Sequence record: PQ330092 | DNA length: 64,000 bases | Reading direction: 5' to 3' (one strand) | Source: Escherichia phage JP4 | Part shown: positions 62,141 to 62,258 of the stretch, piece by piece | How positions within the stretch are numbered: position 1 is the first letter of the stretch | Layout: each line of letters begins with the position of its first letter | The notes under the pieces: generated by a model | Told to the model about the DNA's origin: nothing | Databases searched by the model: none | Seen by the model: the letters and a program-made list of their open reading frames with translations, nothing else | Translations under genes and position numbers: made by a program

Positions 62141-62168
62141 TTGCAAACTATGTTTAAAGGCGTATAAT
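62141..62168 (+). promoter_or_regulatory. early-type promoter with no ORF before the next promoter
   Basis: TTGCAA-16-TATAAT plus imperfect acggggaa..ttcccgt stem-loop; next promoter 91 nt downstream. Confidence 0.5.
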
Positions 62169-62258
62169 GTTTTACATCAGGACGGGGAACGAAATAAGTA
62201 ACTTCCCGTTAAGTAGCCCAGGAGTAAGGCACACGAAAAACTCCCCTGATAAAATAGT

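Follow-up and report, generated by a model that had tools for sequence, protein, structure and literature searches.

One of the promoters of Escherichia phage JP4 (sequence record PQ330092) is followed not by a gene but by a second promoter, and this raises the question of what, if anything, it serves to express. The promoter, P1, is at 62141–62168 (plus strand) in the 64,000 nucleotides of this DNA that we analyzed (the window, to which all positions refer). A first-pass annotation read the locus as a family promoter, about 90 nt containing an imperfect stem-loop and no start codon, and a second promoter (promoter P2; 62259–62286) serving the gene at 62319–62930, and suggested either a short non-coding transcript or tandem regulation. 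The feature is real, and represents a conserved early leader RNA of the T7 type in a new structural variant. The best explanation overall for the segment 62141–62286, and one that we consider probable, is a T7-type tandem early promoter module in which P1 is followed by a structured non-coding RNA and then by promoter P2.

P1 has the hexamers TTGCAA and TATAAT separated by a 16 nt spacer, and upstream of its −35 is an AT-rich block (TTTTAAAAAGTAC; 62128–62140, plus strand) common to the promoter family (repeat D3, 8 copies). It is identical to the promoter at 61580–61607, within a block (62131–62177) that is duplicated at 61570–61616. A generic promoter scan shows no enrichment (39 sites, with 32 ± 7 expected from shuffles) and neither such a scan nor the consensus match alone is significant; P1 is credible because of the repeat family, and the earlier description of it as a family promoter holds. 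Transcription is predicted to begin at the A of AUCAGG at 62176 (plus strand), 7 nt after the −10 and with the same ATC start as the T7 A1 promoter (annotated at 498). There is no ATG, GTG or TTG anywhere in 62176–62258 (83 nt), as the first reading had claimed, nor do a start codon, a ribosome-binding site and a conserved frame occur there as expected of a protein-coding mini-gene. The sole listed open reading frame (ORF) in this position (62167–62262, 31 aa) opens with an ATG that belongs to the −10 hexamer and precedes the predicted start of transcription. The only triplet at the appropriate place after AGGAG is ACG (AUA in some variants), and a mini-ORF with a non-canonical start was ruled out, no near-cognate start being conserved across copies.

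Promoter P2 (TTGACA, 16 nt spacer, TATAAT; plus strand) matches the consensus at 12 of 12 positions, and after it come a Shine-Dalgarno sequence (GAGGG) and the start codon (ATG, 62319) of a 203 aa gene (62319–62930, plus strand; a listed ORF with a protein family match, phrog_5162), so that both the proposed assignment of this promoter and the suggestion of a tandem arrangement stand. The first intrinsic-terminator-like site downstream of P1 in a terminator scan is at 63502–63524 (plus strand) and there is none between 62176 and 63502. Read-through from P1 into gene 62319–62930 is therefore the default expectation, and P1 transcripts probably continue into it; such read-through would not refute a function of the element between the promoters.

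Minimum free energy (MFE) folding predicts that this interval is a 79 nt ORF-free structured RNA element (62176–62254, plus strand; −19.3 kcal/mol) in the form of a three-way junction. In the MFE fold the 5′ strand of a closing helix, AUCAGG (62176–62181), pairs with CCUGAU (62245–62250), which is part of a tail (62245–62254) continuing into a run of A residues. Hairpin Pa (62182–62209; ACGGGGA/UUCCCGU) is directly 5′ of the junction sequence UAAGUAG (62210–62216), which is invariant in the family alignments, and is in the same position as Pa of T7-like phages. Hairpin P2 (62221–62244) has the stem GGAG/CUCC (62221–62224 with 62241–62244) and the loop UAAGGCACACGAAAAA (62225–62240). Pa is the imperfect stem-loop noticed at the outset, and folding adds to it hairpin P2 and the closing helix, both of which had been missed.

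The 94 nt at 62169–62262 are 89–100% identical in 44 phage records of three lineages, Asteriusvirus, Justusliebigvirus (muut, outra, EmilieFrey) and Vequintavirinae (A7_1, A5-4, A73, W70). In each phage the element opens exactly at the predicted start of a promoter and closes at the A run just before another promoter, while the flanking promoters are of local type and the downstream genes differ (muut, outra, A7_1, A73, 121Q copy B, EC.P1 copy B). For example, an 87 nt element is all that the Vequintavirinae phage A7_1 has in common with Asteriusvirus here (92% identity), and the flanks are unrelated. Asteriusvirus genomes have two or three copies, all in the terminal repeat, with copy B ~10 kb from the first. 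Copy C (phage G17, L003 4640–4757; also in L018), just beyond the right end of the window, is more divergent, has the hairpin P2 stem CCAG/CUGG, and sits in the 5′ untranslated region (UTR) of a gene after a strong terminator; there is no promoter after it in G17, and a weak (9/12) candidate in L018. Neither of two covariance models finds a second copy or diverged paralogue inside the window, copies B and C being beyond its end. Small hypothetical proteins have been annotated over promoter and RNA regions of this type in several genomes (E9.1, L001 2133–2279; 121Q gene 270, L012 180–365; Penshu1 gene 1, L122 1–216), and these calls look spurious because the frames are not conserved between relatives.

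The first lead to T7 was a weak BLAST match (37 nt, E = 0.06) in T7-like phages, which pointed to the early region of Klebsiella phage Pkp-1. Pkp-1 has GCCUGU-AAGACAUACGAAAA-ACAGGC in place of the GGAGU-AAGACAUACGAAAA-ACUCC hairpin, with the loop unchanged; the 5′ flank GUUAAGUAGUC is also unchanged, and the hairpin is again between two promoters. T7 itself has ..CCGGAUAAGUAGACAGCCUGAUAAGUCGCACGAAAAACAGGUA-TTGACA.. between its annotated promoters A1 (498) and A2 (626), and a start sequence is common to T7 A1 and the window promoters (ATCGAGAG/ATCAGGAC, 7 nt after the −10). The T7 A1–A2 copy is the best-known example of the motif. A pattern scan of IMG/VR returned 37 loci with 32 true copies, nearly all of them in ~40 kb T7-like contigs just after the first early promoter, and one in a 366 kb contig (L057). 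BLAST with the T7 segment finds the motif in 486 T7-like records, whose phages have Escherichia, Klebsiella, Salmonella, Yersinia, Enterobacter, Citrobacter, Shigella, Serratia and Erwinia hosts, and none of the T7-like BLAST matches listed carries a meaningful annotation on it. There is one copy per genome in the T7-like phages, and the carriers overall are T7-like phages, Asteriusvirus, Justusliebigvirus, Vequintavirinae and Erwinia jumbo phages. Members retrieved by BLAST and not by the pattern (Penshu1, BDX03P1, and Erwinia phages L1 and Hallingskeid) score 49–58 bits with the core model and have minor deviations only (CAAGUAG and ACGAACA), CAAGUAG being the sole variant of the junction. 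In bacterial and archaeal genomes (596 Gb) the same pattern has 62 matches, one of which is a true copy, on a T7-like contig; the other 61 are chance matches in unrelated taxa, 57 without a stem and four with a chance 4–5 bp stem. The first pattern scans gave the same phages or a chance coding match (L008) only.

The motif is promoter-proximal in every one of 47 distinct contexts, with UAAGUAG beginning 18–57 nt past the inferred start. The upstream promoter passes a strict filter in 37 of these, the others having visibly deviant promoters, and a further promoter-like site is present ≤110 nt downstream in 46, with 6 to 47 nt between the motif and the next −35. We note that a perfect rrn-type boxA (GCUCUUUAACAA) is present in the early leader of T7 (L024 434–445) and at 17 other T7-like loci, downstream of the tandem promoters.

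Stem sequences vary across the family in a compensatory manner. The T7-like alignment, of 21 distinct sequences, contains four versions of hairpin Pa (CCGG/CCGG, CCAG/CUGG, CCAC/GUGG and CGGG/CCCG) and two of hairpin P2 (CCUG/CAGG and CUUG/CAAG), the outer pair of which varies between G-C, G-U and A-U. It also has a pseudoknot between the Pa loop and the tail following hairpin P2 (GUCAA/UUGAC, GUCGGU/ACCGAC, GUCAUC/GAUGAC and GAUUAG/CUAAUC), in which five of six pairs covary. Both sides change in 10 of the 15 pairs; 92.4% of the cells are paired, compared with 13–36% when the partners are slid by 1–3 columns, and none of 500 shuffles reaches the observed values. When all lineages are included, hairpin P2 has four stem versions (CCUG/CAGG, CUUG/CAAG, CCAG/CUGG and, in the window, GGAG/CUCC), three of its four core pairs change on both sides, and 91% are paired, with ≤53% in the slid controls. 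At one hairpin P2 position eight sequences have G-U pairs, which would be C-A mismatches on the other strand, and the pairing is therefore in the RNA of the transcribed sense. What is shown is a conserved RNA fold that is specific to one strand and does not depend on which gene lies downstream.

Four features of the family are present in the window copy: UAAGUAG (62210–62216) directly 3′ of a hairpin (62182–62209), a hairpin P2 of the common form (4–5 bp with a 15–17 nt loop UAAG-N4-ACGAAAA), a sigma-70-type promoter no more than ~60 nt upstream (the −10 ends 41 nt before UAAGUAG), and a further promoter at 62259–62286. The core covariance model gives it 51.5 bits (E = 5.8e-13), a score that follows from the inclusion of the window core in the seed alignment, and we take its membership to rest on the covarying hairpin P2 stem. 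The tail in the window pairs with the extreme 5′ end (AUCAGG/CCUGAU) and not with the Pa loop, and the same variant occurs in few lineages, including L057 and G17 copy C, with different closing-helix sequences (GCGGC/GUCGC and GACG/CGUC, respectively). An independent MFE fold of L057 gives the same three-way junction as the window, that of copy C has the closing helix and hairpin P2 without Pa, and that of the L042 copy has a long closing helix. From these folds, a three-way junction variant of the window type is likely.

These comparisons bear on two simpler explanations. The first is that the locus is a relic, a promoter cassette whose ORF was lost, leaving gene 62319 with a redundant second promoter. 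The layout does mirror that of the neighboring cassettes, with a hairpin at the same place, AGGAG, an ACG 8 nt later where the ATG would be, and then TGA, TAA and TAG. But the same sequence is kept as an isolated island in three unrelated lineages and in two or three copies per Asteriusvirus genome, and its core is common to 486 T7-like genomes with compensatory changes in the stems; moreover, the ACG is conserved in all copies with no sign of decay, and no member has an ORF at this position. We reject the relic, which we regard as highly improbable, because of the covariation and the cross-family conservation.

The second is that the conserved object is DNA, either an upstream activating or UP-like sequence or protein site for the next promoter, or a recombination hotspot for the shuffling of cassettes. 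The promoter that follows in 46 of 47 contexts would fit this, as would the T7-like motif ending 6–7 nt before the A2 −35 with its A run at the position of an UP element, and in T4-type phages recombination is known to occur at repeated promoters (PMC2839356). Against it, copy C lacks a following promoter in G17 and has only the weak candidate in L018, L042 likewise has only a weak (9/12) one, and the compensatory changes and one-strand G-U pairs point to pairing in RNA. The distance to the next −35 is too variable for a role as an UP element only, which we reject for this reason, and a DNA-level element of any of these kinds seems very improbable.

The fold does not appear to correspond to a known RNA family. 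Rfam 15 has no match in the window at gathering score, and a cmscan search with E up to 10 gives none in 58800–64000 or in the T7, Pkp-1, L042 and L057 copies. We found no description of the motif in Rfam or the openly searchable literature (older subscription literature on T7 was outside the search), where the T7 string was seen only as template sequence. ARAGORN finds no tRNA or tmRNA in the window. The 94 nt element has no long BLAST match in either orientation in 5,426 E. coli genomes, and host mimicry or a long antisense target is ruled out on this basis; short seed complementarity would be below detection. CRISPR-repeat mimics and hammerhead and pistol ribozymes, which we also considered, have no model support.

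A pseudoknotted or junction fold with invariant unpaired nucleotides is nonetheless typical of small catalytic or ligand-sensing RNAs, and a self-cleaving ribozyme could free the RNA from a read-through transcript, or a riboswitch-like element could sense the state of the host; a second promoter makes sense if P1 transcripts are cut. In the pistol ribozyme (RF02679) a hairpin loop pairs with a downstream strand as a ~6 bp pseudoknot that is followed by an A-rich conserved linker (UUAAAUAG), and the topology of the motif and its UAAGUAG are reminiscent of this. However, the helix order is unlike that of pistol, the motif has no P3 helix or recognizable cleavage-site context, pistol is not among cmscan hits at E up to 10 (nor is any other Rfam 15 ribozyme or riboswitch), and there is no recognizable expression platform. 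We also know of no report of self-cleavage in decades of in vitro transcription from T7 A1, and find a catalytic or sensing role hard to credit.

The window is Asteriusvirus-like: over 61000–64000 it shares 97–98% identity with the PBECO4/121Q group of Escherichia jumbo phages (Asteriusvirus), and in alignment position 58792 is the counterpart of position 1 in phage fEgEco12, which has been placed by PhageTerm and restriction mapping at the left physical end, the start of a ~21 kb direct terminal repeat (PMC13070987). By this alignment, the P1 region is ~3.4 kb inside the leading genome end and within the long terminal repeat. From 60440 onward a repeated promoter (aaAGTACTTGCAA, 16 nt, TATAAT) stands before every small gene, and between each copy and the ATG are a short GGGAA..TTCCC hairpin and then a Shine-Dalgarno sequence; the 50 nt promoter repeat (family D3) has 8 copies in 5.3 kb, and no known function is assigned to the proteins that these small genes encode. 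The leaders of ordinary family promoters (60476, 61616, 62979) open with ATCGAGAG and then a GGGA..UCCC-type hairpin, agreeing with T7 A1 in the first eight transcribed bases and the first hairpin, and the promoter family as a whole therefore looks T7 A1-like.

Several other repeated elements are present in this part of the genome. The 1.65 kb at 58792–60440 has no convincing ORF and several promoters on both strands, and includes ~20 tandem units with an 8 bp period (consensus RGAYGGCT; 59538–59697), which could be a packaging, replication or ejection signal. An exact 40 nt direct repeat (TTGATTCAGTACTGAATAATAGTACTCCTATATAGAAAGA) is at 60316–60355 and 60369–60408, 53 bp apart, immediately before the terminal repeat's first gene. 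The palindrome CAGTACTG occurs at 52 sites in the 64 kb, with 0.8 expected from shuffles (e.g. 59131, 59171, 62072, 62112 and 63533), often as tTCAGTACTGAa in intergenic DNA and sometimes forming a promoter spacer and extended −10 (CAGTACTGTATAAT).

P1 is not the only promoter here without an ORF, and the first-pass annotation held that the orphan promoter at 59157–59184 behaves in the same way. Our results do not support this. The promoter (12/12 consensus, no ORF after it) lies in the terminal 1.65 kb that has no ORF, 365 bp away from the physical end of the genome, and neither covariance model finds a copy of the motif in its transcript. The transcript, of 169 nt, is predicted to have four other hairpins (−48.7 kcal/mol, z = −4.3) and ends at a 14 bp terminator-like hairpin of its own (59314–59347) built of two CAGTACTG copies, over the counterpart of which the G17 record annotates a terminator. 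The unit is conserved in Asteriusvirus only, and 59157–59360 looks like a separate candidate small RNA gene and not a second example of the motif.

There is also a second family of ORF-less promoters, in which a consensus-like promoter is followed ~25–30 nt later by CCCANNGGGUGC (five copies, with none expected). The sites are at 59881–59892, 60096–60107, 62032–62043 and 63564–63575 on the minus strand and 61975–61986 on the plus strand, and the promoters at 59948, 60163, 62093 and 63632 (minus) and 61921 (plus). A small hairpin before CCCANNGGGUGC seems to covary (GUC-GAGAAA-GAC, CGC-GAGAAA-GCG and GAC-GAAACA-GUC). The 63632 unit (minus strand) runs into the terminator at 63502–63524, which is bidirectional, and a copy of the unit precedes motif copy B in EC.P1 (L009 1088–1113). 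The promoters at 61921–61949 (plus) and 62093–62065 (minus), in the same intergenic region as P1, face each other with ~115 bp between them and would give fully complementary short transcripts.

The closest known system is the T7 A1/A2/A3 promoter cluster, of which the window module is a homologous variant. It has been known for decades that T7 has tandem early promoters at its leading end, and in both T7 (A1/A2/A3 and the A1 leader, nt 498–626) and the window strong tandem promoters for host polymerase are near the leading end. Both also have the start sequence (ATCGAGAG in T7 and neighboring window promoters, ATCAGGAC at P1) and the core between the first and second promoters (UAAGUAG and hairpin P2 with its UAAG..ACGAAAAA loop), with no ORF between. 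They differ in the hairpin P2 stem (CCUG/CAGG in T7, GGAG/CUCC in the window) and in the tail, which in T7 is also the A2 −35 and pairs with the Pa loop as a pseudoknot, whereas in the window its partner is the 5′ end, giving a three-way junction. Four features that precede the first gene of T7 are missing from the window copy: an extra 5′ hairpin, a third promoter, a boxA, and a site for RNase III.

A second comparison is with the PeSL cassettes of T4-type phages (PMC2839356, PMC4122927), which like the window have repeated strong sigma-70 promoters and G/C-rich stem-loops and border small genes without known function in plastic genomic regions; the counterpart here is the 8 promoter copies with GGGAA..TTCCC hairpins in 5.3 kb. 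PeSL cassette boundaries coincide with promoters, which fits the island-like transfer of the window element, and this island-like homology suggests recombination between the window promoter copies. However, the PeSL stem-loop is a terminator for upstream transcription (PMC2839356), whereas the window hairpins are downstream of the start, in the leader, and not upstream of the promoter. PeSL cargo consists of ORFs and that of the window cassette is a conserved RNA motif, and there is no sequence similarity between the two.

What the RNA does is less clear than that it is conserved, and two functional readings have to be weighed. One is that it acts in cis as a leader, the emerging motif making the elongation complex resist pausing, Rho or terminators, or stabilizing the P1 transcript, in which case polymerases initiating at P1 would travel further than those initiating at promoter P2. 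There is precedent in the put RNA of HK022, a non-coding, promoter-proximal, two-hairpin nascent RNA in a phage early transcript, in which respects the window element resembles it. The invariable promoter-proximal position of the motif and its lack of a terminator of its own would be in keeping with such a role, as would its place at the leading genome end, where long inward transcription is expected. In copy C and L042 the motif belongs to the 5′ UTR of a gene and no promoter intervenes, and these two fit action in cis better than action as an independent cargo. In L042 the motif is only ~20 nt upstream of an rrn-type boxA (4167–4178), and T7-like phages have boxA further downstream.

There is no boxA near the window copy, however; the sole perfect boxA in the window (20317–20328, minus strand) is antisense inside an ORF and for this reason is judged to be there by chance. 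The position of the motif upstream of other tandem promoters in T7-like phages and the window means that most early transcripts would lack it, which fits poorly with a general antiterminator, and only three of the many promoter cassettes of the Asteriusvirus repeat carry it. There is no sequence or model match to put or other antitermination RNAs. Templates with the T7 A1 promoter are a classic choice for in vitro transcription, and to our knowledge no antitermination has been reported for them. We consider a cis-acting leader unlikely, although it deserves more weight than the relic, DNA-level and catalytic alternatives.

The reading that we prefer, and offer tentatively at somewhat less than even odds, is that the motif is itself what its promoter cassette carries, and that it works as RNA, whatever gene follows, by binding a host component through the invariant junction and loop. 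Because the region is ~3.4 kb from the leading end, host sigma-70 RNA polymerase would be expected to start at 62176 in the first minutes of infection; the RNA would fold as a three-way junction, and transcription would run through promoter P2 and gene 62319–62930 and on to the terminator at 63502. Such read-through would give two mRNA forms of the gene, with the motif on the P1 form only. The RNA may act either as an abundant early decoy or after RNase cleavage frees it from the leader, and possible host partners include RNA polymerase or termination factors, the RNA decay machinery, or a defence sensor. This reading fits the low copy number, the position upstream of other tandem promoters, and the island transfer. 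The element resembles Hfq-type trans-acting phage small RNAs (DicF, lambda OOP) in having its own strong promoter and no ORF, and in being structured and under 100 nt, but differs in that it has no Rho-independent terminator or U tail; its tail is CCUGAUAAAAUAGUUUG, and no terminator-like site (GC-rich hairpin and U run) is found in 62176–63502.

Several points weigh against this interpretation and against the module more generally. The element has neither a terminator nor a defined 3′ end, an uncommon situation among trans-acting small RNAs, and the start site, 3′ end and accumulation of the RNA are all deduced from sequence. The window fold differs from shuffles by a z of only about −2, and the window-type closing helix is found in three or four lineages only, as judged by eye and MFE. 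UAAGUAG, UAAG and ACGAAAA were fixed in the search pattern, such that their invariance is partly by construction, although the stems were not specified. There are no compensatory changes within the Asteriusvirus, Justusliebigvirus and Vequintavirinae group alone, because it has too little variation, and the signal came only once T7-like members were added. Between the window and 121Q the element is better kept (91% identical) than the adjacent ORF (81%, with 36% of third codon positions changed), which speaks for the proposed role, but mosaic recombination could account for part of this contrast. Finally, the first two thirds of the element resemble the 5′ UTRs of neighboring genes (a hairpin and then AGGAG), and it may have evolved from an ordinary gene leader.

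With these reservations, a plausible if not yet favored-by-the-odds view is that this is a previously unrecognized class of phage structured RNA, present also in T7, made from the first promoter to enter the cell, acting on a host component before any phage protein, and exchanged as a promoter-flanked cassette between unrelated virulent enterobacterial phages. The interval between the T7 tandem early promoters has no annotation in the T7-like records examined, yet carries a covariation-supported fold with invariant unpaired bases, and the same fold is kept by T7 (40 kb) and by 350 kb jumbo phages and appears to travel from one to another in the form of a cassette. In annotation terms, the motif accounts for an ‘orphan’ promoter in more than 500 genomes and removes several spurious small ORF calls over the motif. 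Because T7 carries the motif, its role is directly testable with T7 genetics, and should it target a host factor within the first minute of infection, the phage would have in it an RNA-level tool for host takeover or anti-defence.

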